64,000 bases of DNA from an uncultured Heliobacteriaceae bacterium (GTDB lineage: Bacteria > Acidobacteriota > Blastocatellia > RBC074): contig CAZLYK010000009.1 in assembly GCA_964563495.1 (NCBI GenBank), forward strand, positions 45 to 64,044, in the 5' to 3' direction. This document shows, piece by piece, positions 2,585 to 59,481 of the stretch. The translations under genes and the position numbers were made by a program. The notes below the pieces were generated by a model that made no database searches, had not been told where the DNA came from, and saw only the letters and a program-made list of their open reading frames with translations. Position 1 is the first letter of the stretch, and the number at the start of each line of letters is the position of its first letter.

Positions 2585-2652
2585 CAGGATTTTACAGGAT
2601 TAAACAGGATTAAAGACAAGGCATATAAAAATCCTGTTAATCCTGTCTATTT
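2570..2652. repeat. palindromic CAGGATT-heptad intergenic element (family A), copy 1
   Basis: aatagacaggattaacaggatt...aatcctgttaatcctgtctatt; asymmetric arms (4 vs 2 heptads); core aaagacaaggca in reverse orientation. Confidence 0.9.
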
Positions 2653-3654
2653 TATTCTGAGCACTGCCGCCCCGCGGACGGCATCGTGCTTGAGCGCGTT
2701 GAGCGCGGCGTTCACTTCAGCCAGATCGAAGACCTGGGTCCGGGGATTGATCGGGATTTCCGCCGCGGTTCGCAAAAAGTCCTCGCCGTCCCGGCGCGTA
2801 TTATTGGCGACGCTGCGGATGACTCTTTCGTGGTAGAGCAGCCGGTAATCGATCGGCGGGATCTGGCTCATGTGAATTCCGCCGAGTGCGATCGTCCCGC
2901 CTTTCTTCAATACTTTGAGAGCCGAAATGACCAGTTCGCCGGCCGGCGCGAAGATGATCACGCTGTCCATCTCGACCGGGGGATGATCGTCGCTGAAGCC
3001 GGCCCACGCGGCGCCGAGCTCGACCGCCAGTTCCTGGTGTCTGCGGTCGCGGGTGAAAGCGAAGACTTCTACGCCCCAGTGCCGGGCTATCTGTATCGCG
3101 ACGTGAGCCGCCGCTCCGAACCCATAGAGCCCCAGCCTCCGACCGGGGCTCTGACCCTCCAGACCCGACAAACGCAGCGAGCGAAAGCCTATGATCCCCG
3201 CACAAAGCAGCGGCGCAGCTTGCGTATCGCTGAATACTTCCGGAATTGAATAGACGAATCCGGCCGGCGCTATCGCGTATTCGGCGTAACCTCCATTGAC
3301 GATGTATCCGGTAAAACTTGCCCGTTCACAAAGGTTCTCCTTGCCTTCGCGGCAGAAATCGCACTCGCCACAGGTCCGGTGCAGCCATGGGATCCCGACG
3401 CGGTCTCCCAGTTTGAATCCAGAAACGTGTTGACCGACCTGCGCGACCCGGCCGATGACCTGATGGCCGGGGATGATCGGAAGATGCCGCTCGGGCAGCT
3501 CGCCCTCGATCACGTGCAGATCGGTCCGGCAGACTCCGCAGACGCTGACCTCGATCAGCAGTTGATCCGGCCCCGGCTCGGGCACCGGCGCATCGGTCAA
3601 TACGAGCGGATTGGTCTCAACCGGCGCAATCTGGTTTAGTAGACAGGCTTTCAT
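2647..3654 (-). CDS. zinc-dependent alcohol dehydrogenase family
   Basis: [13 protein letters not shown] and [15 protein letters not shown] zinc-binding motifs; ORF-track N-terminal extension is translation of the repeat, so start trimmed to ATG at 3654 (MKACLL). Confidence 0.8.
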
Positions 3655-6066: not shown

Positions 6067-6093
6067 CTTCTTTCTTCTTTTTGGGGATTGGTT

Positions 6094-8832
6094 ATGGCCA
6101 GAGTGATCAAAATTTTGTTCTGCCTTCTCGCCGGACCGGCTTGCCTGGTCGAAGGTTCACAGCCCAATCACTGGGCGTTCGTCGCGCCGGTCAGACCGGC
6201 GCTCCCTGAGGTCAAAAACAAGGCCTGGGTTCGCACGCCGATCGACCGTTTTATCCTCGCCGAGATCGAAAAGCAGGGATTGTCCCCGTCACCGCAGGCC
6301 GACAAGGAGACGCTCATTCGCCGGCTCAGTCTGGACCTGACGGGTTTGCCGCCGTCGATCGAGGAGATCGATCAATTTATCGCCGATAGCTCCCCGAACG
6401 GAGATGAAAAGCTGGTCGAGCGATTGCTCGGCAGCAGCCATTACGGCGAACGGTGGGGGCGTTGGTGGTTGGATGTCGCCCGTTACGCCGACACCAACGG
6501 CTTTGAAAAAGACCTCCCGCGCTCGATCTGGCCGTATCGCGACTGGGTAATCAATGCTTTCAACCGGGACATGCCATTCGATCAAATGACGATCGAACAA
6601 TTGGCGGGAGACCTGCTGCCGGGCGCTACGATCGACCAGCGCGTGGCGACGGGATTTCTGCGAAACTCCATGCTCAATCAGGAAGGAGGCGTCGACCCGG
6701 AGCAGTTTCGCGTCGAGGGGATCATCGATCGCGTCGACGCCGTAGGTAAGGCTTTCCTGGGCTTGACGATCAACTGTGCGCAATGCCACACCCACAAATT
6801 CGACCCGATCGCACACAGGGAGTACTACCAGTTTTACGCCTTTCTCAACAGCGACGATGAGCCCGAGATCGAGGTTCCCGGCGAAGCCGTCACCAAAAAG
6901 CGCCGGGAGATTCTCGCCGGGATCGCCCGTCTCGAAGACGACCTGATCGCCAAGACTCCCGGCCTTTCGAAACAAATGGCTGACTGGGAGGAGAAGGTCA
7001 AGCGGGACGCAGTCGAGTGGGTGCCGCTCGAAGACGCCGGCATCTTCGCTTCGTTCGGCGTCAAGTTCGATCGGCTGGAAGATGGTTCGTTTATCGCCAA
7101 GGGTGACAATTCGACGGCCAACAACTACATCGTCAGGGCGAAGACCAATCTGAGGCGGATAACCGGATTCCGGCTTGAGCTGCTGACCGATCCGAATTTG
7201 CCGCGCGGCGGCCCGGGACGGGCAAATGACGGCGGCTCATACGTCTCCGAATTCATCGTCGAAGCCGGCCCTGCAGACAAAGCCGAGCCGGAGGGAAAGG
7301 TGGCGCTCTCGCGGGCCACGGCAGATTTCTCGCACGCCGGTTATCCGGTCGGCAACCTGATCGACGGTGACCAGAAAACCCACTGGGGCATCGACGCCGG
7401 GCCCGGCCGGCGCAACCAGGATCGTCACGCGGTTCTGGTCGCCAAATCCCCGGTCGATTATGAGGGTGGAGCTCTGCTCAAATTTCAAGTCGTTCAAAAG
7501 TTCGACGAGTCGATCAATGTCATGGGCGGCAAGCCGAACATCGGCAGATTCCGCATTTCAGTCACGACGGCGGAAAACCCCGCCGTCGATGCGCTGCCGG
7601 CAAGGATCCGGGGCGTGCTGGCGATTCCGGCTGAACGGCGCACCGCCGAGCAGCAGCGCGAAATCTTCGGCTTTTATCGCACCACGGTCGCCGAATGGGC
7701 TGGGACGAACGCCCGGATCGATGAGCTCATGAAGGATTGGCCATACGGGCCGACCACGCTCGCCCTGGCGTCCAGGCAGACGCCGCGCCAGACGCGCCTC
7801 TTCAGACGCGGCGATTGGAAGCGTCCAGCCGATCCGGTTGAACCCGGGACCCCGGCGATTCTGCATCCGTTTCCGAAAGACGCTCCGCGCAACCGGTTGG
7901 GTTTGGCCGGATGGATCGTCGACAAGGCGAACCCGTTGACGCCGCGTGTGATCGTCAATCGCATCTGGCAGCAATATTTCGGTCAGGGTCTGGTCGCGAC
8001 GCCGGAGGATTTCGGCTCGCGTTGTGAAAGACCATCGCATCCCGAACTGCTCGATTGGCTGGCGCGCGAATTTGTCGAAAGCGGTTGGAGCATCAAGCAT
8101 ATTCATCGCCTGATCGTTAATTCGGCCGTCTATCGCCAGTCTTCGAAACTGACGCCCAGGCTGCAGGAAGCCGACCCGACCAACCGCTGGCTGGCGCGCG
8201 CGCCGCGTCTGCGTGTGGAAGCGGAAACGATACGCGATATCGCGCTCTCGGCGAGCGGCCTGCTCAGTCACAAGATCGGCGGCCCATCGGTCTACCCGCC
8301 GATCCCCGATGGCGTGCTCTCGCTCAGCTACGGCGCAGCCATGAAGTGGGAGACGAGCGCCGGCGAGGACCGTTACCGGCGCGGGATGTACACCTTCTGG
8401 AAACGCGCCATCCCCTATCCCGGTTTGCTGGTCTTTGATGCGCCGAACGCCGATTTCTCCTGCACCCGCCGGGTTAAATCCAACACGCCGCTCCAGGCGC
8501 TGACAACCCTCAATGATCAGGTCTTTATCGAAGCGGCGCAGGCGCTCGCCTGGCGCGCCTTCAAAACCGGGGGCGCCGGCGATCGCGAAAAGATCGTCTA
8601 TGCGTTCAGGCTCTGCACCGGCCGACGCCCGGATCAATTCGAGTTGAACAGATTGACCGATCTTTTGCACGATCAGCAGGTCTATTTTCGAGGGCGCACG
8701 GCGGCGGCGGTCTATGTCTCGTCGCCGGATCTCAATCAGCTGCCCGAGGATGTCGACCTCCACGAGCTTGCCCCGTGGACCATGGTTGCACGCGTCCTGC
8801 TCAATCTGGATGAGACAATCACAAAGGAGTAG
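6094..8832 (+). CDS. DUF1549/DUF1553 (PSCyt2/PSD1) domain protein
   Basis: 912 aa; signal peptide; [17 protein letters not shown] and [14 protein letters not shown] motifs typical of the family; ATG at 6094 (TTG at 6088 in the track). Confidence 0.8.
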
Positions 8833-8834
8833 CG

Positions 8835-10286
8835 ATGAATCACCGGGACGAAATCAATAGTGAATACCGCCGGCTGGTCACCCGCCGTCATTTCTTCAGG
8901 GAATGCGGGATCGGGCTGGGATCGATCGCCATGGCGTCGCTGCTCGGCGATAAAATCCTTGCCTCAACCCAGCAGGCCGCGATCAATAATCCGCTCGCAC
9001 CGAAGCCGCCTCATTTCGCGGCCAGGGCAAAGCGCGTGATCTATCTCTTCCAGGCGGGCGCGCCGTCGCAGTTGGATCTCTTCGATTACAAACCCGCGCT
9101 CGTCAAATACAACGGCCAGCCGGTTCCGCAGGAGATGGTCAAAGGGATCAACTATGCTTTTATCAAACCCGACGCCGGCCTCTACGCTTCCGAGTTCAAA
9201 TTCGCGAAACACGGCCAATCCGGCGCCGAAATGTCCGAGGCTTTGATTCATTTGCCGAAAGTCGCCGATCAGATCGCGATCATCCGCTCGATGATCAGCG
9301 AGGCGATCAATCACGCGCCGGGGCAGATCTTTATGAACACGGGATCGGTCCAGTTCGGCCGGCCGAGCATCGGCGCTTGGGTGACTTATGGGCTAGGCTG
9401 CGAAACGCAGGACCTGCCCGCTTTCGTCGTTCTTTCGTCGGCGGGCGGAACCAGCGGCGGCGCCGGCAACTGGGGCTGTGGTTTCCTGCCGACGATCTAC
9501 CAGGGCGTGCCGTTCCGCCGGACCGGCGATCCGATCCTTTCACTCTCGAACCCGCGCGGCATGACTCGCGAGATGCAGCGAAAAACGCTCGATGCCCTCA
9601 AGGATCTCAACGCTCATCACCTCGATCTCAGCGGCGATCCGGAGATTACTACGCGAATCAACTCCTTCGAGATGGCTTTTCGCATGCAGGAGAGCGCTCC
9701 CGAACTGATGGATCTCTCTAAAGAATCGAAAGCCACGCTCGAGATGTACGGGGCTGAGCCGGGCAGGAACTCATACGCCAACAACTGTCTGCTGGCGCGC
9801 CGGATGATCGAACGCGGCGTCCGCTTCGTCCAGCTCTTCCACGAGGCATGGGATCACCACAGCGAAGTCTACAAAGGCGTCAAATCGCAGTCCAAACAGA
9901 CCGACCAGGCGACGACTGGGCTGATTCTCGATCTCAAGCAGCGCGGACTGCTCGACGACACGATCGTCGTCTGGGGCGGTGAATTCGGCCGCACACCCAT
10001 GGTCGAGACCGACCCCGAAGCCAATCGGAGCAAAGGCCGCGATCACCACAACAAGGCCTTCTCGATGTGGGTCGCTGGCGGAGGCTTCAAACCCGGCGTG
10101 ACCGTCGGCGAAACCGATGAGCTGGGATTCAATGTAGTCAATGACCCGGTCCACGTCCACGACCTGCACGCGACGATTTTGCACCTCCTCGGGTTCGAAC
10201 ATACGAAGCTGACTTATCGTTACCAGGGCAGGGATTTTCGGCTGACCGACGTCGGCGGAATCGTGGTTGAAAAACTGTTGGTCTAA
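8835..10286 (+). CDS. DUF1501 domain protein (sulfatase-like fold), Tat signal
   Basis: 483 aa; twin-arginine [14 protein letters not shown]; usual partner of DUF1549/1553 proteins. Confidence 0.85.
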
Positions 10287-10366
10287 ATCAAACCGGACAA
10301 CGCCGGGACACTGGTTGCGTGAGCCCCGAAGACGAGATTGACGAAATTGTTTGAGGATTAAACAAG

Positions 10367-12274
10367 ATGAAATACCGATCTTGGCTGCTGATTTTTCTCA
10401 TCCTCGTGCCGGCCGCTGTCGCTCAATCTTTGTCGCCGCAAAGCAAGCCTAAACCGGCTGCGCCGGCGAAGAGCGATGAGGCCGCGGAAAAAGAGCAGAA
10501 AGAGGCGGAATTGACCGCCCTCGAGTTCCGGGCATTGAGTCTGATCGAGGAGGCCGGCCGCGACGCCGGTCGGCTTGAGAATCTGCGGGAGGGCGCCAGA
10601 TTGCAGGCTTTGGCGGCGGATCTGCTCTGGTCCCACCGGAGGGACAGGGCCCGGCAGCTTTTCGATGAGGCCTTTCAAACCGCCGAGCAGCACTACCGGA
10701 AAAGTCAGGACAATAATACGACCAGGATCTCAAACAGCGCCTGGGTCAGCCGCGACGATGTCCGCATGGAGATCGTTCGTCTGATCAATAAGCACGACCC
10801 GGCTCTGGGGCGGGAGTACACTGAAAAGTTTATCGAATCGAAGAAAAAACAGCGTGAGAGCGGCAATCAAGAGGGGGCGAAGCCGAACAGCCTCGACCAG
10901 ATGTTCGGCTCGAATTCGACCGCGGCGAGCGACCTTCTCCGGATCTCGGATTCTCTGCTCGAGGTCGACCCAAAGCTTGCCATCGAGCTCACCCAGCGAG
11001 CGATCGCGATGAGCGTCACGCCGTCCTTGAGCGGTTTTCTCAATCGGTTGTCGGAGCGTGATCGAGCCGCAGCCGATCGCCTCTTTTTCATGGCTCTCGA
11101 CCGGCTGCGCGCCGACCCGGCCCCTCTGGCCGGTGAGCTCCTCTCGCTGTCCGGCTATCCCTTCGGCGCTGAAGAGATCCGTTTTACCGATGGCGGCGGA
11201 AACACCTCGATGTGGGGGTTCGGCAAGCCGGAGAATTTCAAGGCCGATCCCAGACTGATCCAGAGGTTTCTCTTGAACGGCATGGAGATCCTCACCAAAG
11301 CCTCCGATCCGGCGGTTCTTCAGTTACCCGATGGTGTATCCAGGTTGGGAGCGGCGCTCTTCGCAGCCAGATCGATAGAGCCCAGAGTCGTCGAATATCA
11401 GCCCGCGCTGGCCGAGAAATGGCAGGGCCTGATCGCCAGGATCGCGGCGCTCACCTCGGACGGGCCGCGCCAAAGAATAGACCAGCAAATGCAGGAAGCG
11501 GCTAGCAGGAAAGCCGAGACGCAGAACCCACCTGCGAGCGGCAGCGACGCCCCGACCGTCCAGGCTTTGATCGATCGGGCCAAAGTGGCCGGCAACATCG
11601 TCGAAAAAGACGATCTCTATATGGAAGCCGCGCTCGCCGCCGAACGGACGGGCGATAGCTCATACGCACTGGAGGTCGCCGGCAACATCCTTGATCTGAC
11701 GCTCAGGCAAAAAGCCAAATCCTGGATCAGTTTTGGGGCTTCCACGAAGGCCGTTGGTGAAAAGAGGCTGGATGACGCCAAACGCTTCGCCCTCGATGTC
11801 GATGAGGCCGATCAACGGGCCTACCTCTTTCTGGAGATCGCCAAAGCCGCACTCGGCGATAAGGATCAAGCCCGCGCGCGCGAGCTCATGGAAGAAGCCC
11901 TGCAAAAAGCCAACCAGGTGGAAGACTCGCCCGGCAAGCTGCGCTCCTTGCTCGGCCTCATCAGTCTGTACTCCCAGGTCGATTACAATCGCGCATTCGA
12001 GATTGCCGAGCACGCGGTTCGAACCGCCAATCGTATCCCATCCGACCAGCTCGGAACGGGAATCGACGCCGCCCGGCTGGTCAGAAAGCTCGAAACCAAC
12101 AGAAACAGCATGGCCATGACCACCTCCGTCACCGGGTTCAATCCCGATCACGTCTTCGCGGCTTTGGCGAAGTTCGATTTTCAGAGAGCCCTGACCATCG
12201 TCGAGGGGTTTGAAAGCCTGCCGGTCAAACTCTCGACCACTCTGGCCGTAGCCGGAACGGCGCTCAGGAAATAA
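10367..12274 (+). CDS. hypothetical secreted Ala-rich protein
   Basis: 635 aa ORF with N-terminal signal peptide; no recognisable domain. Confidence 0.55.
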
Positions 12275-20251: not shown

Positions 20252-22051
20252 ATGAAACATCCGGGAAGATCAATGACCGAATCGACGACCAAAATCGTGC
20301 GCGGAATCTCGGGCGCCCGCTGGCGGTTGAACCAATGCGACGAAGAGTTGGTGGACGGTTTGCGCCGGTCCACGGGTGAGGACGAGATTCTGATCCGCTG
20401 TCTGGTCAATCGCGGCCTCTCGAATGCGGAAGAGATCAAGAATTTCCTGGAGCCGCAGTTCTTCAGCCAGCTTCACCCGCCCATGCTGCTGCGGGATATG
20501 GCGGAAGCCGTCGGGCGGTTGCGACGCGCCGTCCGCGATCGGGAGCGCATTCTGATCGTCACCGACTTCGACGTAGACGGGACTACCTCGAGCATCATTC
20601 TATCGCAGACATTAAAGCTGCTGGGCGGGGCAGACCTCGTCTCCTGCTACATCCCGGACCGCTTCAGCGAGGGCTACGGTCTTTCCCGGCAGATCGTCGA
20701 GCAGGCCGCCGCCGGCGGCTTTCGCATCATCCTGACGGCCGACATAGGGATCAAATCACACGCCGAGTCGCGGCTGGCGCGCGAGCTCGGCATCGACCTG
20801 ATCATCTGTGATCACCACCTGCCCGATGGGGAAGACGTCCCGGCCGATGCCTTCGCCGTACTTTGCCCCAAGGGATCTTCGGGAACCGGCTATCCGAACA
20901 AGCACCTGGCTGCCTGTGGAGTCTCGCTCAAACTGGCTGATGCGCTGCTCGAAGGACACTCAAAGAGGGAAGCGATTTTAGCCTCGCTCGCCAAACTCAC
21001 CGCCATCGGGACGATCGCCGACATGGTCGATCTTTCGGCCGGGGAAAACCGCGCCATCGTCGCTCACGGTCTGAAAGCTCTCTGCCGGCCGAGCAACAAC
21101 CCGGGTTTGCGCGCACTGCTCAGACTGGCTCAGGTTGGCGACCCAATCACCTCTTACGATATCGGCTTCAAAATCGGCCCGCGGATCAACGCCGCCGGGC
21201 GGATCGCGCACGCCAACTCGGTCCTCGCCCTGTTCGAGGCTAAAACGGATGATGAAGCGACCGAACTGGCACTCAAACTCGACGCCCTCAATTCCGAACG
21301 CCAGCATATCCAGCACATTCTGGTTGAAAAGTTGAAGAAGCTCGTCTTTGAGGGGAATGATCGATTTCCACACGTTCTGGTCTTTGCCGGCAGCGAGCAG
21401 GAGGATTTTCATCGCGGCGTGATCGGTATCGCCTGCTCCAAAATGGTCGAGATGACCGGGCGGCCGACCTTTATCTGCTCGGTCAATGAAGATGGCATTG
21501 CTCACGGCAGCGCCCGCTCGATCGGCGGATTCCATCTGGTTGAGGCTCTCGATTCGGTCTCGGATCTGCTCGTCAAATATGGAGGTCATCCCATGGCCGC
21601 AGGCTTCACGGTTCCCTCTGAAAAGATCGACGAGCTTCGCCGGCGACTCAATCATTACGCCGAGAAGATCCTGAGCGATCAGGATCTGGGGCGAATCCTG
21701 ATCGCCGACGCGGAAATTCGAGTCGAAAGCGCGACCGTCGAGACTACCCGATCCCTGGCCAGACTGGAACCACACGGAGTCGGCAACCCCACTCCGCTCT
21801 TCCTGCTGCGCGGCGCTCCCCTGCGCTCGATCCAGGTGCTCAAGGAGAAGCACCTCAAATTGCTCATCGGCCCGGAAAGGATGCCGCTCGAAGCTCTCTG
21901 GTGGAATGCAGCCGACCACCGATCGAAGCTCGAAGGGGCGTCTTCGATCAGTCTGATCTGCCGGCTCGAGATCAATCGCTGGAACGGCCGCGAAACCTGC
22001 CAGCTCAAGATCATCGATGCCAAGATTGAGGAAAAGAATAGACAGGATTGA
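20252..22051 (+). CDS. recJ: single-stranded-DNA-specific exonuclease RecJ (DHH/DHHA1)
   Basis: [21 protein letters not shown] motif; 599 aa; C-terminal NRQD* supplied by the repeat. Confidence 0.9.
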
Positions 22052-22134
22052 CAGGATTTCTGCAGGATTGAACAAGATTTATATCTTGTTCAATCCTGCA
22101 GAAATCCTGTCAATCCTGTCTATTCTTTTCCTGG
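22037..22134. repeat. family A element, copy 8 (perfect palindrome, extended by gaaaag/cttttc)
   Basis: aatagacaggattgacaggatttctgcaggattgaacaagatttatatcttgttcaatcctgcagaaatcctgtcaatcctgtctatt. Confidence 0.95.
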
Positions 22135-22175: not shown

Positions 22176-22251
<76 letters not shown>

Positions 22252-22262
22252 CTTTTAGAAAA

Positions 22263-22301
22263 AACAGTTACGGCTTCCGAAAGGAAGCCGTAACTGTTTT
22301 T
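22263..22301. terminator. bidirectional rho-independent terminator
   Basis: 15-bp perfect stem acagttacggcttcc/ggaagccgtaactgt, GAAA loop, T-tract on both strands; lies between the tRNA-Pro 3' end and the 3' end of the convergent cupin gene. Confidence 0.85.
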
Positions 22302-22737
22302 ACGACACTTTCAGCTTGGCGTCCTTTGGAGGATTCTCGGCAAACCATTCCGAGATCGCCGGCATATGTTTCTCGAAATCCCCGGGAATCGAAAAGTTCA
22401 GGACGCCCGCCCGCTCAGAACTACGGTTCTCGAAATCATGCGTGACTCCGCCAGGCGCCAGGATGAAGGAGCCTTTGGGGGCTTCAACCCAGCGATCACC
22501 GACGAGAATGCTCATGGTCCCATCAATCACATAGAAGATGTCGTCCTCGGCGTGGGAGTGCGCTCCGGGACCTTGTGTGTGGGGTTCCAGCCACCACTCA
22601 GAGATAGAGTACCCGCTCTGTGTTTCATCCCCGTCTGCTTTGAAGACGGCGCTGATCCGTCCCATCGGGTAAGAACGCCCTTCGCCGGGAAGCAGAAATA
22701 TGCCGGCTCGCTCTGTCGGTCTAGCCTGGTCGCTCAT
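22300..22737 (-). CDS. cupin domain protein
   Basis: 145 aa; double-stranded beta-helix His motifs (GAHSHAEDDIFYVIDG...GGVTHDFEN). Confidence 0.75.
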   Translation of the reverse strand: MSDQARPTERAGIFLLPGEGRSYPMGRISAVFKADGDETQSGYSISEWWLEPHTQGPGAHSHAEDDIFYVIDGTMSILVGDRWVEAPKGSFILAPGGVTHDFENRSSERAGVLNFSIPGDFEKHMPAISEWFAENPPKDAKLKVS

Positions 22738-22912
22738 GTTCCCTCCTCTCAGACGTATTTATCGATAGCGCCGCCAGAATACAACCGGTAATCGCCGGGC
22801 GCAACGATACAGTCACAACCGAGTCACAGTTCGCCGGTTCGGGTTCGACTCGATTGCATTCCAGATGCTTTACTGACATCATCGCCTCAAAGCAGAAGGG
22901 AGCCGAGCTAAG

Positions 22913-23890
22913 ATGGCAAATTCACAGCAACCGACCTTGTTTAATCATAAACTCATAGTCATCGCAAAGGCCTTGAATGTTCGCCAATCACCATCACCGC
23001 AAGGTGAAATCGTTGGTTTACTTGGAAAAGATGAGGTCGTCGATTGGCTCGACACATCGGAAGATGGCCAGTGGTACAAGGTTCAGAAAGGCAATCTCGT
23101 CGGATGGTCATTTAGAAAATTTCTCACCACTGTCACGCCATCAGAACTAGACAAAATTACTCAGGTTGCCGCGGCCTCGGAGGTTGCGCGCTATCGATGG
23201 CTCGACCGGGGAGTAGCGCCGCTCGGATACATTAAGGGAATGGCCGTTGCTTACGCGAGGGTCTATTGCAAGCTGTTAGCCGGAGATGCTGCTGCCATAG
23301 AGATGGCAAAAGCAAAGACGACAGTAACCGGCAAAGATGCCCTGGCGCATTATCATCAAATCTTTCAAGATGCCGGAATGGACAACAGCCGTGCCGGGGA
23401 CGACACGCTTCGACATTTATTTGTACTCCTGATCGGACTTGGGATGCGTGAAAGTTCCGGGCGTTATTGTGAGGGACGTGATAGATCGGCGAGTAATACC
23501 ACAGCGGAAACAGCCGAAGCCGGGCTTTTCCAGACCAGTTACAATGCCAGAACCGCGAGCCCATTGCTGCCGGTATTATTTCATCAGTATTCGGCTAATC
23601 CGGCAGGGTTTGTCGATATCTTCAAACAAGGCGTCAGGTGCACCGATGCAAGCCTTGAAAACTATGGAGATGGTGACGGGAGGGAGTTTCAGCGTTTATC
23701 AAAGGCTTGCCCGGCATTTGCAGTCGAATTCGCCGCGGTGGGGCTGAGAAACATTCGGAAACACTGGGGGCCGATAAACCGCAAAGAAGCAGAGGTCCTG
23801 CCTGAGGCCGATGAGATGTTAATGCAGGTACAAAATATTGTAGATAAGTTTAATCTCTGTCCAGCGCTCAAAGGAAATAGCCAGGATTGA
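22913..23890 (+). CDS. SH3b domain protein with C-terminal lytic-transglycosylase-like region
   Basis: N-terminal bacterial SH3 pattern (ALNVRQSPS...GWSFRKFL); C-terminal GMRESSG...AEAGLFQ resembles the SLT catalytic ES...AxGLMQ motif; gene looks AT-richer than its surroundings. Confidence 0.55.
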   Translation: MANSQQPTLFNHKLIVIAKALNVRQSPSPQGEIVGLLGKDEVVDWLDTSEDGQWYKVQKGNLVGWSFRKFLTTVTPSELDKITQVAAASEVARYRWLDRGVAPLGYIKGMAVAYARVYCKLLAGDAAAIEMAKAKTTVTGKDALAHYHQIFQDAGMDNSRAGDDTLRHLFVLLIGLGMRESSGRYCEGRDRSASNTTAETAEAGLFQTSYNARTASPLLPVLFHQYSANPAGFVDIFKQGVRCTDASLENYGDGDGREFQRLSKACPAFAVEFAAVGLRNIRKHWGPINRKEAEVLPEADEMLMQVQNIVDKFNLCPALKGNSQD

Positions 23891-24166
23891 CAGGATTTCA
23901 ACAGGATTATAGCAAGTTTCACGTTTGTGCGACCGCGTCCTCGCGGTCGCACAAACGTGAAACTTGCTGCCACAGTGTAAGCATTGATTGATGACCAATG
24001 CTATCAGCGCGGTTTTCAGTTTCGTGCGTCCTGTCAGACGCCCTCCCTGACGGTCGGTCTTCTGACAGGACGCACGAAACTGAAAACCGCTGTAAACCGG
24101 ATCAAAGACAGGGCAAAACAACATCCGGTTTAATCCTGTTGAAATCCTGTCAATCCTGTCTATTTC
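23876..24166. repeat. composite: family A element split by a nested ~186 bp hairpin-rich element (family B, 23909..24094)
   Basis: left A arm 23876-23908, right half (aaaccggatcaaagacagggc...aatcctgtcaatcctgtctatt) 24095-24166; insert holds a 26-bp perfect stem hairpin (23912-23967), a 6-bp hairpin (23980-24000) and a ~32-bp stem hairpin (24006-24092). Confidence 0.85.
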
Positions 24167-24206
24167 CTTCTTTGATCTGCTCATTCGTCTGACTGATTCA
24201 GTTTTG

Positions 24207-26351
24207 TCAGTTTATCGCTATCCGAAACCCGATATATTTGTTGCCATGATCCGGCATTTTGAACTCACGGTAAGAAGTGCGGCAAGCATCGCTGGTGCAC
24301 ATAATACAACCGCCGCGCTGTACATAATATCCCGAATTGGACGATCGCATTTGCCCGTCGTTTTTTAATTTCCGACGGTAAGCTTCTTCATCGTACCAGT
24401 CTTGACACCATTCCATGACATTGCCATGCATATCAAAGAGTCCCCAATGGTTCGGTTTCTTTCTGCCTACCGGATGCGTGCTATTTGAAGCATTATCGGC
24501 GTACCAGGCATAATCCGACAGCTTGCTTTGATCATCGCCGAAGCCCCACCTGCCGGTCGAGCCGGCGAGGGCGGCATACTCCCATTCGATTTCGGTCGGG
24601 AGGCGGTAAACCTCATTCCCGGTCTTTTGCCGCAGCCGTTTGATGAAATCCTGAACCGTATTCCACGACACCGTTTCGACGGGGCGATCATCATCTCCTT
24701 TGAAATAACTCGGATTGTTGTCGCTACCCATCAAAGCCTTCCATTGGGATTGAGTAACTTCGTATTTGCCAATCGCGAATGAAGCCACCTTCTCTCGATG
24801 CCTCGGCCTTTCATCCGGTTCTCCCTGATCCCATCCCATCTCGAACTCGCCACCCGGCAGGTGCACCATTTCAATCATGACACCATTCCCCAGATCTACA
24901 GTCAGCGATTGAAGCAATGCGGGGCTTGATGCGGGCGTCTCGGGTGAAAAAGCCGGCGTGTTTACAATCATTGGGGTGGGACTCAGGTAGGTCTCGCCCC
25001 GGTTGAGATTATGACGGATCAATAGAAAGACGGTAACGGCGAGCGCTGCGACAAATACAGTATATTTCCAGCGTGCGTCACGCGGCGGCGGAGCTTTCTC
25101 AGAGGCTTGGTCTTGACCTGCCGAATCTCGCTCGCTCCCAGGTCCGGCGCCGGCTTGCAACTCAGCCACGGTTGGTTGGGGGCAGCTTCGAATAGCCTCT
25201 TCGAGGATTGCGGCGACTTCGCCGGCGCGTTGAGGGCGATGGCTCGGGTCTTTCGCCAGCATCCGGCCGATGAGTTGATCGACTGAAGCAGGTACGTTGG
25301 GGAGGATGTCAAGGATGGATGGCGGCGATGCCGTCAATTGCATCTGGATGACCCTTTGCACCAAAGGGTCATCGAACGGGAGAGTTCCGGTCAACATTTG
25401 GTACAAGATAATCCCGAGTGAGTAGATGTCCGATCGTTTGTCGATCAGGCCGCCCTCTTGTAACTGTTCGGGGCTTGCATAATGGGGTGTTCCGATTGGG
25501 GTCGAGACGGGTGATCCCGCCGTAGTGCTGATGACTTTGGCGATGCCGAAATCCAACACTTTGACGTGACTGCTCCCATTGGGCTCATCAACCAGCATGA
25601 TGTTGGAGGGTTTAAGATCGCGGTGGACTATGTTTTTGGCGTGAGCCTCTTCAAGCGCGGCAGCAACCTGCCGAATGACGCCGGTGGTGTATTCCAAGCT
25701 CAGGCGGCCGGATGAAGCAATCTCTTCATCGAGCGTATGACCTTCAAGCCACTCCATGACCATGAAGGCAATGCCTTCGGCTGTTTGCCCGGCATCCGTA
25801 ACATAGGCGATGTTATTGTGATGGAGCCGGCCGACCAGTCTTGACTCCTGCTCAAAGAGGCCGACGATGTACCGGCTGCCGAGCGCCACATTGGGTTGGA
25901 GGATTTTGAAAGCTACTCGGCGGTCAATTTTTATGTGGTGCGCGGCATAAACCGCCCCAATTCCACCGACGCCGACGAGGGCTTCGATCATGTACTTGCC
26001 TGCCAGGGTCAGTCCTACGAGATGGTAAGGGTCCGGCAGTGAGAGTAATTGATTGTCGCTTGTGCAAAAGCGATCTGCCCTTGGATATTGCTGCCGGCAC
26101 TTGGGGCAGAATTTTGTCAGCTTTTCATCCGCCCTGCCCGGATCATCGATAATCCAGGTAAGATCCTTTACGCCGGCTGTCACAATCAATTCTATTGTCT
26201 GTTTATCGAATGCCAGGAGGGATTCCACTTCGCTGCGCAGTTGGTCATCGCCGGCGCAGGCTCGACTGAGAAAATCAGCCCACTCGATGGGGTCGAGCCT
26301 CAACGCGGCGTGAAATAGCTCGCTGATCCGTTCGTGTCGCTCAGGCGTCAT
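24207..26351 (-). CDS. Ser/Thr protein kinase fused to a C-terminal FGE-sulfatase (SUMF1-like) domain
   Basis: kinase motifs VAFKIL, HRDLKPSNIML, DFGIAK; TM segment; C-terminal GNVMEWCQDWYD FGE domain; start set to the ATG overlapping the sigma stop (ATGA). Confidence 0.85.
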   Translation of the reverse strand: MTPERHERISELFHAALRLDPIEWADFLSRACAGDDQLRSEVESLLAFDKQTIELIVTAGVKDLTWIIDDPGRADEKLTKFCPKCRQQYPRADRFCTSDNQLLSLPDPYHLVGLTLAGKYMIEALVGVGGIGAVYAAHHIKIDRRVAFKILQPNVALGSRYIVGLFEQESRLVGRLHHNNIAYVTDAGQTAEGIAFMVMEWLEGHTLDEEIASSGRLSLEYTTGVIRQVAAALEEAHAKNIVHRDLKPSNIMLVDEPNGSSHVKVLDFGIAKVISTTAGSPVSTPIGTPHYASPEQLQEGGLIDKRSDIYSLGIILYQMLTGTLPFDDPLVQRVIQMQLTASPPSILDILPNVPASVDQLIGRMLAKDPSHRPQRAGEVAAILEEAIRSCPQPTVAELQAGAGPGSERDSAGQDQASEKAPPPRDARWKYTVFVAALAVTVFLLIRHNLNRGETYLSPTPMIVNTPAFSPETPASSPALLQSLTVDLGNGVMIEMVHLPGGEFEMGWDQGEPDERPRHREKVASFAIGKYEVTQSQWKALMGSDNNPSYFKGDDDRPVETVSWNTVQDFIKRLRQKTGNEVYRLPTEIEWEYAALAGSTGRWGFGDDQSKLSDYAWYADNASNSTHPVGRKKPNHWGLFDMHGNVMEWCQDWYDEEAYRRKLKNDGQMRSSNSGYYVQRGGCIMCTSDACRTSYREFKMPDHGNKYIGFRIAIN

Positions 26352-26989
26352 GGCTTCCTCCCACGGTCGAGTTCGCGCAACAGCCAGGCCCTGGCCAACC
26401 TCCAATCTCTTTTGACGGTTTCGGGTGAGATGCTGAGAGTTTCCGCCGTATCTTCAATGCTCAGCCCGCCGAAGTAGCGCAGCTCCACCACCCATCTCTG
26501 CCTGGGGCTGAGATCTGCCAGGATTTTTAACGCATCGTCCAGCGCCGATAGTTCCTCGCGTTGATCCTGCGAAACCAACTGCGCCTCATCCAATGCCACA
26601 AACCGGAAGTCGCCGCCCCGTTTGATCGCCTTCTCAGCGCGCTTTATATCCAAGAGGATCTCCTGCATCAGTCTGGCGCAGGCGGCAAAGAAATGATCGC
26701 GGCTCTTCCAATCTACCTGACTTTGGTCAACCAGGCGCAGGTAAACCTCATTGATGAGCGCTGTCGCCTGTAACATGTGGCCGGGGTTCTCGCGGTTGAT
26801 CCGTGCCCTGGCGCGCTTGTGGATTTCCCCGTAGACCATAGTAATGAGCTCATCAAAAGCGGCAGGATCTCCATTGCGCCAATCCAGGAGCAATTGTGTG
26901 ACTGTCCGTGACTGGAAGTGATCCATGAATCTCCTCTGATAAGTCACCCACTCTTGGTGTGCAGTTACCGCTCGGTGATCATACTGCAC
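26348..26989 (-). CDS. ECF-type sigma-70 family sigma factor (kinase-associated subgroup)
   Basis: sigma-70 region 2 (LINEVYLRL) and region 4 (TLSISPETVKRDW); GTG start at 26989. Confidence 0.8.
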   Translation of the reverse strand: MQYDHRAVTAHQEWVTYQRRFMDHFQSRTVTQLLLDWRNGDPAAFDELITMVYGEIHKRARARINRENPGHMLQATALINEVYLRLVDQSQVDWKSRDHFFAACARLMQEILLDIKRAEKAIKRGGDFRFVALDEAQLVSQDQREELSALDDALKILADLSPRQRWVVELRYFGGLSIEDTAETLSISPETVKRDWRLARAWLLRELDRGRKP

Positions 26990-30817: not shown

Positions 30818-32239
30818 ATGAAAAGAGTTTCTTTCGCCTTTTTCCTCAGCGCTTTGTTGCTCGGCGGACCGGTTCTGTTGTTTCTGACCACGGTGCTGCC
30901 GTTGACTGCCGGTGCGCAACGCGCGACCGCAGAGAGGCCGAACATTCTTGTCATCGTGGCGGATGATCTGGGTTATGCCGACATAGGCGTGCAGGGCTGT
31001 CAGGACGTCCCGACGCCCTACATCGATTCTCTGGCGAGAAATGGTCTGCGCTTTACAAACGGCTATGTCTCGGGGCCGTACTGCAGTCCTACGCGCGCCG
31101 GTCTGCTGACCGGGCGCTATCAGCAACGCTATGGCCACGAATTCAACCCCGGCCCGGCGGGCAATGCTGATCCGGAGTTCGGGTTGCCTCTCACGGAAAC
31201 GACGCTGCCGGCTCGGTTGAAAGCGCTGGGATACACGACAGGAATGGTCGGCAAATGGCATCTGGGTTTTGAGCCAAAATTTCATCCGATGAAGCGAGGC
31301 TTTGATGAGTATTTCGGTTTTCTAGGGGGGGCTCACAGCTATTTGGAAAACAGCGAGGGGCGCAATATGGTCATGCGCGGCAACCGGATGGTGACAGAGT
31401 TTGGTTATCTGACCGATATGTTCGGCGACGAAGCCGCGGCTTTTATCGAACGACAAAAGGAGAAACCCTGGTTTTTGTACCTGGCCTTCAATGCCGATCA
31501 CACGCCGATGCAGGCGACCGAGAAATACCTGGCGCGTTTCCCAAACATCAAGGATCCGCTCCGGCAAAAGTTTGCGGCGATGCACAGCGCCATGGATGAC
31601 AACATCGGTAAGGTGCTCTCCGCGCTCGGCAAGCACAGGCTCGAAGAACGCACGCTGATCGTTTTCCTCAGCGACAACGGCGGCCCGACCAGAGCCAACA
31701 GTTCACGCAACACACCGCTGCGGGGCTTCAAGGCGCAGACGTGGGAAGGCGGCGTTCGCGTCCCCTTTTTGCTCCAATGGAAAGGCAAACTGCCCGCCGG
31801 CGTGGTCTATCAAGAGCCGGTCATTCAGCTCGACATTCTCCCAACGGCGCTGGCTGCCGCCGGCGTCGAGGCGAAAGGCGATTGGAAACTCGATGGAGTC
31901 AACCTGACGCCCTATCTGACCGGCCAAAAGAAAGGGGCGCCGCACGAGGCGCTGATGTGGCGTTTCGGCGGGCAGATGGCGATTCGGATGGGCGAGTGGA
32001 AGCTGGTCAAAGCGCCCGGAGCCGGGGCTGCATTTGCTGAGCGCCGTCAACGCACGACGGTCAGCGGCGCGCATCTATACAACCTTCGCGACGATGTCGG
32101 CGAACAGGTCAACCTGGCGGACAAAGAGCCGGAGAAGGTCAAACAACTCGCCGCTTTCTGGGAAAAGTGGAACGCCGAATTGGAGGAGCCGCGCTGGGAG
32201 CCGAACCGCAATCCCAACCGGCAAAATAGAGAGGATTGA
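30818..32239 (+). CDS. sulfatase (formylglycine-dependent arylsulfatase family)
   Basis: CSPTRAGLLTGRY C-x-P-x-R motif; signal peptide; C-terminal NRED* from a half repeat. Confidence 0.85.
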   Translation: MKRVSFAFFLSALLLGGPVLLFLTTVLPLTAGAQRATAERPNILVIVADDLGYADIGVQGCQDVPTPYIDSLARNGLRFTNGYVSGPYCSPTRAGLLTGRYQQRYGHEFNPGPAGNADPEFGLPLTETTLPARLKALGYTTGMVGKWHLGFEPKFHPMKRGFDEYFGFLGGAHSYLENSEGRNMVMRGNRMVTEFGYLTDMFGDEAAAFIERQKEKPWFLYLAFNADHTPMQATEKYLARFPNIKDPLRQKFAAMHSAMDDNIGKVLSALGKHRLEERTLIVFLSDNGGPTRANSSRNTPLRGFKAQTWEGGVRVPFLLQWKGKLPAGVVYQEPVIQLDILPTALAAAGVEAKGDWKLDGVNLTPYLTGQKKGAPHEALMWRFGGQMAIRMGEWKLVKAPGAGAAFAERRQRTTVSGAHLYNLRDDVGEQVNLADKEPEKVKQLAAFWEKWNAELEEPRWEPNRNPNRQNRED

Positions 32240-32258
32240 CGGGACTTTTGCAGGATCT
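32225..32258. repeat. family A half element (left arm)
   Basis: aatagagaggattgacgggacttttgcaggatct; supplies the sulfatase stop and lies just upstream of the FGE start. Confidence 0.7.
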
Positions 32259-32264
32259 GAAAGG

Positions 32265-33323
32265 ATGAGCCTGAGACAATCAATCTTATTGCTGTGGTTG
32301 CTACTGTTGTTTCTCGCGGGTTGCAGAACCCAGTCGCCGGACTCTGCGATTGCGCCTCCTCAAACTGAATTCACTGCCGTAGCGAGCGTCAACAAACGGC
32401 CGCCGCCCGGTCCCGCCCCTGCCGGGATGGTCTGGATTCCCGGCGGCACGTTTTGGATGGGTTGCGCGGATTGCAATATGCCCGACGCCTTGCCGGTGCA
32501 CGCAGTCACAGTGGACGGATTCTGGATCGATCAAACGCCGGTCACAAACGCTCAGTTCGAGCAGTTCGTACGGGCGACCGGTTACCGAACTATTGCCGAG
32601 CGTAACCCCGATCCGAAAGATTATCCCGGCGCTGATCCGAACATGCTCGTACCCGGCTCGGCTTGTTTTACCGCGCCGCCGACGGACGTCCCGCTCGATA
32701 ATTTCCTGCAATGGTGGCGGTACGTGCCCGGCGCCAACTGGCGGCATCCTGAAGGGGCGAACTCAACTATCCAGGGACGCGAAAATTATCCGGTCGTGCA
32801 TATTGCCTGGGATGACGCGGCAGCCTACGCGAAATGGGCGGGCAAACGGCTGCCGACCGAAGCCGAATATGAATTTGCCGCGCGGGGCGGGCTTGATCGC
32901 CATCGCTACGCCTGGGGTAATGAGTTGAAGCCCGGAGGCAAATGGCCGGCGAACATCTGGCAGGGAAAGTTTCCCTCAAAGAACACCGGTGAGGATGGCT
33001 ACTCCGGCATATCTCCGGTGAAGGCGTTTCCGCCGAACGGATTTGGACTCTACGACGTGGGCGGCAACGTCTGGCAATGGTGCGCTGATTGGTATCGGCC
33101 CGATTATTATCAAACGCTGGCCGCAGGCGGATCGCGTAACCCCCAGGGGCCTGCCGACAGTTTCGACCCGCAGGAACCGGGAATTCCGAAGCGCGTCCAG
33201 AAGGGCGGTTCGTTCCTCTGCAGCGATCAGTATTGCGTGCGCTATCTGGTTGGCAGCCGCGGCAAGGGCGCGACCGACAGCGGCAGCTCAAACGTCGGTT
33301 TCCGCTGCGCGAGCGGGGGGTGA
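32265..33323 (+). CDS. formylglycine-generating enzyme family protein (lipoprotein)
   Basis: LLLLFLAGC lipobox; WIPGGTFWMGC, RLPTEAEYEFAARGG and GNVWQWCADWY FGE motifs; start trimmed from the track ORF (upstream part is out-of-frame overlap and repeat). Confidence 0.85.
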   Translation: MSLRQSILLLWLLLLFLAGCRTQSPDSAIAPPQTEFTAVASVNKRPPPGPAPAGMVWIPGGTFWMGCADCNMPDALPVHAVTVDGFWIDQTPVTNAQFEQFVRATGYRTIAERNPDPKDYPGADPNMLVPGSACFTAPPTDVPLDNFLQWWRYVPGANWRHPEGANSTIQGRENYPVVHIAWDDAAAYAKWAGKRLPTEAEYEFAARGGLDRHRYAWGNELKPGGKWPANIWQGKFPSKNTGEDGYSGISPVKAFPPNGFGLYDVGGNVWQWCADWYRPDYYQTLAAGGSRNPQGPADSFDPQEPGIPKRVQKGGSFLCSDQYCVRYLVGSRGKGATDSGSSNVGFRCASGG

Positions 33324-34412: not shown

Positions 34413-34435
34413 ATCAAAGGAAGAAAATAGACAGG

Positions 34436-34531
34436 ATTGACAGGATTTTCACAGGATTAAACAGGATTTTGTTCTGCCTTGGCTTTGATCCTGTTTAATC
34501 CTGTGAAAATCCTGTCAATCCTGTCTATTTT
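34436..34531. repeat. family A element, copy 13
   Basis: perfect arms; core ttgttctgccttggctttgatc. Confidence 0.95.
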
Positions 34532-34550
34532 CTTCCACGAATGAAGACGA

Positions 34551-35993
34551 ATGAAGTGGAATGATCTAAAGGATACAGCGGCATTCATCGCCTTGCTCGA
34601 TGGTCTGCCTGCCGGATTGCCGGGCTTCTTCGGTGACGAGCGGCCATTGATCGTCACGCGTGCGCCGGGCCGGCTCGATCTGATGGGCGGGATCGCCGAT
34701 TACAGCGGCTCGCTGGTGCTGCAATGGCCGATCGAGGCGGCGACGCACGTCGCCCTGCAACGAACCACCGAGCCGGCGCTACAAATTGTCAGTCTGCGCG
34801 CAGAGGGCGGCCAGGCGCGGCGCCAATTTAATTTGCCGCTGAGCAATCTTTTGATACGCGGCGAAGCAATTGCCTATGACAAAGCCCGCGAATGGTTCGA
34901 CGATCATCCCGACGATCACTGGGCGGCATATGCAGCCGGCGCATTTCTCGTGCTCATGCGCGAGCGAGGCGCGGTCTTTAACCAGGGGGCGGGGATTCTG
35001 ATCCGCTCCGACGTGCCCGAGGGCAAGGGCGTCAGTTCATCCGCCGCGCTCGAAATCGCCGTCATGCAGGCGATCTCCGTCGCGTATGACATCGCCCTGA
35101 CGCCGCCCGAAATGGCCTTTCTCTGCCAGAAGGTTGAAAACCTGATCGCGGGCGCTCCGTGCGGCGTCATGGATCAGATGACTTCAGCGTGCGGCGAAGC
35201 GAACCGTCTGCTTGCCCTCCTCTGCCAACCCGGTGAACTGAAAGGTACGGTCATGTTGCCCGCGGAACTGGCGATCTGGGGCATAGATTCCGGGATTCGT
35301 CACGCGGTCACCGGAGTCGATTACGGTGCGGTGCGGACGGCGGCTTTTATGGGCTACCGGATAATTGCGGAGCTGGCGGGTCTGAAAGCGGAAGAGCTAT
35401 CGCCAGGTCGCGTCAAGATAGATGACCATCGCTGGAACGGCTACCTGGCCAATCTCTCGCCGCAGGAATTCGAGCGATCATTCGCCGCACACCTGCCGCA
35501 GGAGATGTCCGGCGCGGAGTTCCTGGCCAATTACCAGGGCATCACGGATACCGTGACAGATGTAGTTCCTGACCGCCGTTATCCGGTTTTTCAAGCGACA
35601 CGCCATCCAATCTATGAACACGCGCGTGTCAGTGAGTTTGCCGCGCTGCTTGATCACGAACGGCCTCTTGTCCGCGCCGAACGGCTCGGCGAATTGATGT
35701 ACGAATCGCACGAGAGTTATTCCGCCTGTGGTCTCGGCTCAGAAGGTACAGATCAACTGGTGCGGCTGGTGCGGCAAGCCGGGCCTGAGTCGGGTCTGTT
35801 CGGCGCAAAGATCACAGGCGGCGGCAGCGGCGGCACGGTTGCAGTGCTCGGTCGCCGCGACGCCGGAACGGTCGTCGGCCGGATCGCCCGGCAGTATGCG
35901 GAACAGACGGGCCACCAGGCGCTCATCATCTCAGGCTCTTCGCGGGGCGCAGGAGCATTCGGTCATCTGATACTAAGAAATAGACAGGATTGA
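34551..35993 (+). CDS. GHMP kinase, galactokinase-like
   Basis: [20 protein letters not shown] galactokinase-signature-like; [20 protein letters not shown] motif; 480 aa, longer than typical GalK; C-terminal NRQD* from the repeat. Confidence 0.7.
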
Positions 35994-36082
35994 CAGGATT
36001 TTCACAGGATTAAACCGGATTTCTTTCTGCCTTGTCTTTGATCCGGTTTAATCCTGTGAAAATCCTGTCAATCCTGTCTATT
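35979..36082. repeat. family A element, copy 14
   Basis: arms with aaaccggat/atccggttt variant; core ttctttctgccttgtctttgatc. Confidence 0.95.
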
Positions 36083-45710: not shown

Positions 45711-45745
45711 ACAGTCTTAACAGAATTTCAATAGGATTAAACACG
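45706..45745. repeat. family A degenerate half copy
   Basis: aatagacagtcttaacagaatttcaataggattaaacacg, directly abutting ATG 45746. Confidence 0.6.
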
Positions 45746-46792
<1,047 letters not shown>

Positions 46793-46805
46793 TAGACATG
46801 AGTTT

Positions 46806-47978: not shown

Positions 47979-48020
47979 TCCTCGCGGATGAATAAATTTA
48001 GTGTCAGGATGGAGAATCGG

Positions 48021-59470: not shown

Positions 59471-59481
59471 TATTAAATCAA

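Follow-up and report, generated by a model that had tools for sequence, protein, structure and literature searches.

The end hairpins of IS608-type elements are short, imperfect and set back from the cleavage sites; in IS608 itself the distance is about 19 nt at the left end (LE) and about 10 nt at the right end (RE), other family members vary, and a guide tetranucleotide lies inside the element 5' of each hairpin foot. The REPs of E. coli carry a GTAG motif at the hairpin foot. A REPIN consists of two inverted palindromic REPs and a hairpin-forming spacer (PMC3337134), while a PATE consists of IS200/IS605 ends without genes, together with a transposon-adjacent motif (TAM; PMC10055086). Here we describe element B, a hairpin-rich insert of 185 nt that splits one copy of an abundant palindromic repeat, family A, in a 64-kb stretch of DNA from a soil acidobacterium (contig CAZLYK010000009.1; the whole of this stretch is called the window hereafter). 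An initial annotation, made from the letters alone, had labelled B an IS200/IS605-derived PATE. Our preferred reading, which we hold tentatively and stop somewhat short of calling probable, is that B is a small non-coding, non-autonomous mobile element whose most likely mover is a trans-acting single-strand transposase of the HUH/Y1 class. By sequence B matches neither a described family nor an Rfam model; the nesting of small hairpin elements is an already known phenomenon.

Element B within a family A palindrome

A family A palindrome is split between CAGGATT and AAACCGGAT by the 185 nt at positions 23909-24093. The boundary was called from an alignment in which 11 further A arms or copies were set against this one, and the alignment contains a single gap, about 185 columns wide, that opens after CAGGAT(T) and closes before (T)AAAC. 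All the other aligned copies carry the empty site CAGGATTAAAC, while the filled site reads CAGGAT[TA]TAGCAAG...CCGCTG[TA]AAC; the sequence of the region is ...CAACAGGATT|ATAGCAAG...CCGCTGT|AAACCGGAT... The insert reported initially at 23909-24094, with a length of about 186 bp, is therefore present but one nucleotide shorter by alignment. Because TA is found on both flanks of B (GGAT-TA-TAGC...GCTG-TA-AAC), the boundary may slide by up to 2 nt, and a 183-nt element at 23910-24092 with a duplicated TA is a formally possible alternative delimitation. No A sequence was lost at the insertion and no duplication exceeds 2 nt. Once 23909-24093 is excised, the left A arm and the reverse complement of the right one agree at 39/40 positions (a figure taken from the arm listing with the junction corrected by hand), and the outer arms of the host copy measure 39 nt and are 97% complementary. 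The alignment and this arm match bear out the original claim that B entered A without disrupting it, and B is a clean insertion into one A copy.

The left arm of the host copy (23871-23908, plus strand), recognised as an inverted repeat and by alignment, contains three ACAGGATT-type units and ends in CAACAGGATT directly 5' of B. Element B itself (23909-24093, plus strand) is supported by the alignment gap, a fold z of -20 and its related ends. The remainder of the host copy (24094-24169, plus strand), supported by inverted repeats and alignment, comprises an inner stem-loop, AAACCGGAT...ATCCGGTTT, and the right arm. B is accordingly placed off-centre in A, between the third and fourth repeat units of one arm, and the whole lies between two convergent genes, an SH3 gene at 22913-23890 (plus strand) and a kinase gene at 24207-26405 (minus strand). 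A short-read Logan contig (L001, run SRR14932511) is identical to window positions 22224-23929 at 1706/1706 bases, spans the left A-B junction and reaches 21 nt into B. Since this independent contig carries the junction, the left junction is not an artefact of the present assembly. The contig ends at 23929, 9 nt short of the first 31-mer that occurs more than once in the window; this end may mark a further A-B junction in the sample or, equally, a drop in coverage at the palindrome.

Inverted-repeat and fold analysis resolved three palindromes in B, all listed without strand. The first, B1 (23911-23968), is a perfect palindrome with 27-nt arms and a TCCT loop, so that the perfect stem and loop of the initial annotation hold and its stem length of 26 bp is raised by one. 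The central hairpin (23980-24002; AGCATTG, a 9-nt loop and CAATGCT), identified from sequence and fold, pairs 23980-23986 with 23996-24002 over 7 bp, where 6 bp had been given, and lies within the 40-nt spacer that separates B1 from B2. The last, B2 (24009-24090; inverted-repeat, fold and end comparison), had been described as a stem of about 32 bp with a 21-nt loop; the hairpin is there, and it measures 30 bp of uninterrupted stem, extendable to 35-nt arms of 94% complementarity around a 12-nt loop. The B2 arm is akin to the B1 arm (TTTCA[C]GTTT[C]GTGCG.CC). As single-stranded DNA, B folds at -84.6 kcal/mol on the plus strand against -27.3 +/- 2.8 for shuffles (z = -20.4) and at -88.4 kcal/mol on the minus strand, with shuffles of about -27 to -29 across strands (z of about -20). 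The secondary structure of B is far beyond chance, and B together with its host A copy adopts a nested multi-branch fold of -128 kcal/mol.

The hairpin feet, at 23911 and 24090, stand 2 and 3 nt from the boundaries of B. When the left terminus (ATAGCAAGTTTCACGTTTGTGCGACC) is compared with the reverse complement of the right one (ACAGCGGTTTTCAGTTTCGTGCGTCC), 18/26 positions agree in register from the very ends, any other offset gives at most 10/26, and the local-alignment p value is 0.002-0.003 against shuffles and random window segments. Directly after each terminus comes an inverted copy of it, so that the two ends fold back on themselves. Since B1 and B2 are both palindromic, the relation between them can be read either as terminal inverted repeats or as similar hairpins on the same strand. 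The arms of family A consist of phased ACAGGATT-type units beginning ATAGAC; B contains no array of such units and shares with A just its first four bases (ATAG) and one TGACAGGA octamer inside B2. Judged on these sequences, B is a family distinct from family A.

A minus-strand open reading frame (ORF) of 121 aa (23819-24184) crosses the entire element, and a 101-aa form of it is annotated as a protein in a public NCBI record (P0001). We regard this ORF as spurious because P0001 has no homologue among 5.8 billion proteins; the initial statement that B has no ORF overlooked the frame itself and was right that no real gene is present. B is without a credible ORF and is non-coding. Rfam, at gathering and at permissive thresholds, returned only tRNAs and sub-threshold, generic hairpin matches of the miRNA-precursor type. 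The IS200/IS605 origin suggested initially found no echo there, with no match of B to IS605-associated RNAs, and a scan for promoters and intrinsic terminators detected nothing in or beside B.

A truncated second copy

The first 38 nt of B recur 24 kb away at 47950-47987 (plus strand), 38/38 identical to 23909-23946. This fragment, hereafter site 2, runs through the left arm of B1 and its loop and 5 nt into the right arm (CGCGG), and it starts at the same B nucleotide as the full copy. It is preceded by the flank CAATAGGATG (47940-47949, plus strand), which was delimited by flank comparison and by relatives and which agrees with CAACAGGATT, the flank of the full copy, at 8/10 positions (P = 4e-4); the common flank of both loci, CAA[C/T]AGGAT[T/G], is based on n = 2 and could be A-derived. 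Uniqueness of B, or unrelated flanks at other copies, had been named initially as evidence that would count against this reading of B; neither applies, and what was found is a truncated copy with the same start and a similar flank.

The genes on either side of site 2 code for a GFO/IDH/MocA oxidoreductase and a DUF1080 protein (3-keto-disaccharide hydrolase), and site 2 lies in the spacer that separates them. Its flank holds the TAG stop of the GFO/IDH/MocA gene and is missing from relatives. The oxidoreductase homologues end in ...RQWE-x-[V/I] plus 0-2 residues and their spacers are without AGGAT. These C-termini indicate that ...QWEEI is native in the window, which confines the lineage-specific part to the last codon, the stop and GATG. 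On the right-hand side of the fragment lies GGAGAAT..ATG, which two relatives (L102 and L106) show to be the native ribosome-binding region. Two longer readings of the locus as A-derived were rejected: the sequence right of the fragment (TCAGGATGGAGAATCGGATG) is not made of A units, being the native DUF1080 ribosome-binding region in relatives, and 18-24 nt of the left flank cannot be counted as A-like when WEEI is native coding sequence in homologues, which leaves about 10 nt.

The base at position -1 differs between the copies (G at site 2, T at the full copy) while the first base of B, A, is common to both, and this mildly favours a left end at 23908|23909 over a TA duplication. Mismatches number 0/38 in B and 2/10 in the flank (Fisher p = 0.04), and this weaker conservation of the flank tends to favour separate insertions. 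Site 2 is best described as a lineage-specific gain of the left end of B behind an AGGAT-type motif, the rest of the element apparently having been lost afterwards. The flank similarity of the two loci may reflect a target preference, a remnant of an A unit, or sequence carried along with B.

The same spacer varies among relatives. It is absent from L105, plain in L100, and bears two different and unrelated palindromes with 25-28-nt arms in L101 (4430-4540) and in L103 and L104 (4140-4224 and 2769-2853, respectively). This suggests that one spacer has been colonised repeatedly and independently by hairpins.

Family A and the neighbouring genes

About 20 family A loci are found in the 64 kb of the window (for example 22029-22132, 34419-34536 and 35977-36082). 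An exact-pattern scan located the family A termini, ATAGACAGGATTRACAGGATT, in at least 98 stretches from many phyla (loci L002-L099), and exact 21-mers of the family are common to many bacterial phyla and an archaeon. Among the matches listed are Acidobacteriota, Chloroflexota, Proteobacteria, Verrucomicrobiota, Lentisphaerales, Bacteroidota, Armatimonadota, Hydrogenedentes and a Methanoperedens archaeon, and the A units among them are mostly palindromes of 75-125 nt. A literature search found no relevant paper on the family A repeat sequence.

Longer A-type elements of 450-530 nt enclose, in the loop of the palindrome, a gene for a GxxExxY protein of 125-140 aa (TIGR04256, E 1e-38 to 1e-41); such loci are L062 (4998-5517), L083 (647-1104), L047 (429-959) and L092 (6445-6884), with a remnant in L065 (4216-4275). 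The ATG of the gene lies inside the last ACA(A/G)GATG unit of the element. Family A therefore looks like a gene-less derivative of a GxxExxY (PD-(D/E)XK-type) gene cassette. There is no GxxExxY gene in the window, and we know of no established function or mobility mechanism for this protein family. A further locus (L050, 1-560) has a GxxExxY gene in the same architecture, with inverted arrays of units of about 9 nt, the last of which holds the ATG; its unit, CACGAAGG (CACGAAGGR), is not that of A, which suggests that the flank repeats of the GxxExxY family are lineage-specific. Another locus (L035), in which two inverted A termini lie 2.7 kb apart, was considered as an autonomous form of A and rejected; these are two separate A copies, and the ORFs between them have translations without transposase-like sequence and are apparently ordinary host genes.

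Over 40 nt, the two arms of the same A copy are about 92% identical on average, with four pairs at 100%, while arms of different copies are 78% identical (pairs compared in the window include 13035/13133, 22038/22123, 34427/34528 and 35980/36081). The higher identity within copies points to arm-to-arm copying or conversion, or to selection for the hairpin. No A arms were found in about 51 kb of syntenic or neighbouring DNA (L100-L106) from relatives whose GFO protein is 90-93% identical. As A is frequent in the window and lacking from the syntenic DNA of these relatives, its expansion in this lineage is recent, and B must be younger still. Half-copies of A stand exactly at gene boundaries (45704-45749, 10325-10370 and 32223-32268). 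The half-copy at 45707 replaces the native spacer and GAGGAG ribosome-binding site that are seen in L100 (8090-8200), and it supplies both the TAG stop of a GDSL lipase gene and the ATG of the next gene; the ATGs at 10367 and 32265 lie within the terminal AGGATGA/AAGATGA unit. The wider interest of the locus resides in this family, in its spread across phyla, its recent burst, its rewritten gene boundaries and the nuclease genes of the GxxExxY type that it encloses.

In other phyla, A-type elements hold nested repeats in their loops (L030 992-1501, L052 3653-3996, L081 1764-2064 and L076 2490-2795). The loop contents are REP-like palindromes of the GTCATTCCCGCG...GCGGGAATGAC type, a 23-nt tandem array or another A copy, and A elements may be frequent landing sites or carriers.

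The window carries ordinary chromosomal genes, including those for ProRS, RNase R, RecJ and HMG-CoA reductase as well as galactose genes, sulfatase/FGE genes and those for an ECF sigma factor and a kinase. At 88-93% identity, the oxidoreductase has its closest homologues among proteins labelled Blastocatellia/Acidobacteria. Families usually regarded as hallmarks of planctomycetes occur at 6088-10286 and 24207-26989, namely PSCyt2/PSD1 (DUF1549/DUF1553), DUF1501 and an ECF sigma factor (PF07638) that adjoins a Ser/Thr kinase-FGE fusion; despite these planctomycete-type families, the best homologues of the GFO/IDH/MocA protein (46764-47945), the one window protein searched, are from Blastocatellia, and a planctomycete origin was rejected on this ground. 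At 58585-61121, three consecutive 275-aa ORFs (58585, 59452 and 60294) lie next to an MFS transporter, alongside a 300-aa ATP-grasp ORF at 62385-63287. Matches to RimK-like ATP-grasp families were obtained for the first of the 275-aa ORFs and for the 300-aa one, and the two middle ORFs are assumed to be paralogues by their equal length and a shared 43-nt repeat.

One relative (L101), whose GFO protein is 93% identical to that of the window, carries, two genes away from the site-2 orthologue, a 150-aa Y1 transposase of the IS200/IS605 family (NF033573, 74 bits). At 2380-3080 of this locus, the Y1 gene sits between inverted arrays of about 100 nt, each of three short hairpins (GCCGCGTATGCGGCGGC, CCGTGGGTTTTCAACCCACGG and GCGTCGCGTCAGCGACGC), an arrangement like that of a REPtron. 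Y1 enzymes and hairpin repeats occur in this clade.

Possible origins of B and comparison with described elements

The clean insertion, the related and structured ends, the non-coding sequence and a second left end behind a similar flank together argue that B is a defined mobile element and not filler. The lack of any duplication beyond 2 nt, a left flank motif that is preserved and the mismatch at -1 of site 2 further point to a mechanism without target-site duplication, and single-strand transposition by HUH/Y1 enzymes is the best-known mechanism of this type for hairpin-ended elements. In such a scheme B would comprise a hairpin at each end, the two being mutually related in inverted register, and a 40-nt spacer with its own small hairpin. 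It would have integrated without target duplication directly 3' of an AGGAT(T/G) motif in the left arm of an A palindrome, and at least a second time at the similar motif 24 kb away, where everything past the B1 loop would later have been lost. The mover would be an HUH/Y1 enzyme, either an IS200/IS605 TnpA or a RAYT, encoded elsewhere in the genome, that recognises the end hairpins on one strand, cuts 3' of the flanking motif and pastes the cut strand into single-stranded DNA. We infer mobility in trans, the class of the enzyme and the strand-specific chemistry from these features, and B would then be a REPIN/PATE-like element. Its architecture resembles that of a REPIN as much as that of a PATE, the latter being the alternative for the same class of enzyme.

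A number of results weigh against this interpretation, and the scarcity of B is foremost among them. One full and one truncated copy (1.2 copies within the 64-kb window) are all that was found in the collections searched. Nothing else in the rest of the window resembles B by blastn-short or nhmmer. An exact B1 20-mer had 0 matches in 185,579 GTDB species genomes, 241 million JGI metagenome records and viral contigs, and an exact B2 22-mer had 0 matches in the JGI metagenome records and viral contigs, the two collections in which it was sought. Plasmids and phages showed no similarity to B (blastn, distant mode), and the 106 fetched loci (about 0.7 Mb), made up of 99 A-repeat loci (674 kb) and seven loci of close relatives, gave chance words only by blastn-short and nhmmer. 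Because long ORFs cross B, six-frame B peptides were compared with the 5.8 billion proteins in order to catch mis-called ORFs over other B copies, and only the spurious ORF of the source contig was recovered. No record was obtained of contigs that combine the neighbouring kinase gene with an empty site.

The remaining objections concern the mover and the form of the ends. No tnpA, tnpB, RAYT, Y1 or other transposase gene is present among the roughly 50 ORFs of the window, and the hairpins of the L101 Y1 element match neither B nor anything else in the window; the tnpA/tnpB with hairpin-matching ends that the PATE label implied was thus not encountered in either place. The hairpins of B, at 27-35 bp, (near-)perfect and 2-3 nt from the ends, are unlike IS608-type ends. 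The TA on both flanks is equally expected of a TA-duplicating DDE element, and B1 and B2 are only 69% alike while the halves of a REPIN are near-identical. The flank motif, at n = 2, could reflect shared descent and not target choice, and the site-2 flank may be an A remnant or part of a junction that was copied as a unit.

The serious rival is that B is a miniature inverted-repeat transposable element (MITE) of a TA-duplicating DDE transposon of the IS630/Tc1-mariner type. The element would then measure 183 bp (23910-24092) and would have inserted into the TA at the centre of TTAA in GGATTAAAC with duplication of that TA, and the ends of its IS630-like parent would resemble TAGCAAGTTTCAC or CAGCGGTTTTCAG. 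It owes its standing to the TA on both sides of the full copy, where the empty site has a single TA within TTAA, and to termini that form in-register inverted repeats (18/26). A size of about 180 bp without an ORF agrees with this model, as does the right terminus, which reads inward as TA-CAGCGG...; a CAG start is typical of Tc1/IS630 ends. The second copy, however, has GA and not TA before TAGCAAG and has lost its right side, and the identity between copies starts one base before the boundary that this model places. Each terminal repeat also pairs with its adjacent inverted copy, which is atypical of MITEs, the identity of the terminal inverted repeats is low (69%), and no DDE transposase is found in the window. 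We consider a MITE origin unlikely, though well worth keeping in view.

Less weight falls on four other explanations, namely the stepwise accumulation of palindromes, the passive capture of DNA, a functional RNA and an artefact. B could be a cluster of independent palindromes (B1, the middle hairpin and B2) assembled stepwise in the manner of a BIME, or grown by fold-back or template switching from a shorter precursor resembling the 38-nt piece at site 2. B1 and B2 do fold individually, only the left part of B1 recurs at site 2, and arm-copying or conversion would agree with the perfect arms of B1 (27/27) and of several A copies. The different palindromes in the GFO-DUF1080 spacer of relatives (L101, L103/L104) imply that hairpins arise or land repeatedly in this clade, and A-like elements of other phyla contain nested REP-like palindromes (L030, L052, L081). 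Yet all 185 nt occupy one position in A, whose sequence is whole on either side, B1 and B2 resemble each other in register at their outer ends as would be expected of one unit, and B1 and B2 are without individual flanking repeats, neither occurring alone and complete in the window. A stepwise origin is rather doubtful on this evidence.

Improbable, too, is a passive origin, in which break repair would have patched a captured fragment, or a segmental copy, of some other locus into A, and site 2 would be a copy of the A-B junction with its flank (about 48 nt) and not an insertion of its own. The 8/10 flank similarity is contiguous with the identical 38 nt, so a junction could have moved as one segment, and B is an orphan in every database searched. 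Against this, the A flanks are untouched to the nucleotide, the ends of B are symmetric, related and structured, the flank is less conserved than B (p = 0.04), and no source locus for B exists in the window.

A more speculative proposal, to which we attach little probability, makes B the parasite of a parasite. B, as a hairpin element of a kind not described before, would home specifically to the A unit CAAYAGGATK, and A and B would both be moved by machinery linked to the GxxExxY nuclease and unlike known transposases. The PD-(D/E)XK nuclease genes concerned would be those enclosed by full-length A-type elements in other phyla, and the ATAG start common to the ends of A and B would be a shared recognition feature. 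If it is true that B targets a 10-nt A unit, its target recognition would be different from, or more elaborate than, that of IS200/IS605 (4-5 nt).

That B is a functional structured RNA or a regulatory DNA site (a small RNA, a terminator or RNA stabiliser, or a protein-binding site) merely lying inside A is very improbable. Its position between two convergent genes and its strong structure on both strands would suit such a role, but it reaches no Rfam family at threshold and resembles only generic miRNA-precursor hairpins, no promoter-like or intrinsic-terminator-like site is in or next to it, it is not conserved in any relative or database searched, and it interrupts the A hairpin rather than extending it. 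An assembly or amplification artefact, such as a chimeric inverted duplication, is scarcely credible: multiple displacement amplification or long-read errors can yield perfect inverted repeats, and this one contig is the only source for the right half of B1 and the whole of B2, but the left junction and 21 nt of B are identical in the independent Logan assembly, site 2 repeats the arm of B1, its loop and the beginning of its return arm, and the surrounding A copies are equally perfect palindromes.

Under the preferred reading of B as a mobile element moved in trans by an HUH/Y1 enzyme, the locus shows that abundant palindromic repeats can act as landing pads for other small elements, and it adds one lineage-specific, low-copy hairpin element to those described. 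An origin related to IS110 and its bridge RNA, which inserts site-specifically into REP-like targets and leaves a 2-nt core on both sides, was also considered and was dropped when neither a recombinase ORF nor an Rfam signal was found.

Compared with the REPIN/RAYT system (Bertels & Rainey; PMC3337134, PMC3116915), B is likewise non-coding, extragenic and within about 100-200 nt, and it has two related palindromes in inverted orientation with a hairpin-forming spacer between them. A short motif at the hairpin foot, A[T/C]AG in B, is a further likeness, and movement in trans by a Y1 enzyme would be presumed by analogy. In contrast, REPINs occur in tens to hundreds of copies, whereas B has 1.2 copies in 64 kb and no match elsewhere among the collections searched. 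REP units are imperfect palindromes of about 20-40 nt while B1 measures 58 nt (and is perfect) and B2 82 nt, and REPIN halves are more than 90% alike and fold together while B1 and B2, with a likeness of 69% over 26 nt, form separate folds. REPIN systems also have a single-copy RAYT gene with the same REPs on its flanks; to our knowledge, no RAYT is flanked by B-like hairpins.

The resemblance to PATEs (PMC3119063, PMC10055086) lies in the lack of an ORF, in similar same-strand hairpins at both ends, a layout that needs no terminal inverted repeats, and in what may be an insertion without target duplication 3' of a short TAM-like motif, AGGAT[T/G], which is kept on the left flank. To this extent the PATE label first given to B is partly supported, the hairpins and an insertion 3' of a motif without duplication being consistent with it, and it is the geometry of the ends that departs from IS608. 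The hairpins of B abut its ends (2-3 nt), which leaves no room for a left internal guide, and its stems are about three times longer than IS608-type hairpins. B also differs from PATEs in that the searches turned up neither a matching autonomous IS nor a tnpA, a tnpB or an omega-RNA signal for it, and its flank motif may extend to about 10 nt as against 4-5 nt.

With TA-duplicating MITEs (IS630/Tc1-mariner type, and the Correia elements of Neisseria), B shares a non-coding sequence of about 150-190 bp with terminal inverted repeats that are imperfect, a TA at either side of the full copy, and an intergenic position, which for such elements is often between convergent genes. It differs in that the second B copy is without TA and in that the ends of B fold on themselves rather than pairing together, and we know of no parent transposase for B as a MITE of this kind. 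Finally, B resembles the nested repeats known as MITE-in-MITE or REP-in-BIME, where one small palindromic family is the landing site for another, and A-like elements of other phyla similarly hold GTCATTCCCGCG-type palindromes or another A copy. The nested DNA in those elements occupies the central loop of A, whereas B is inserted off-centre, in one arm.

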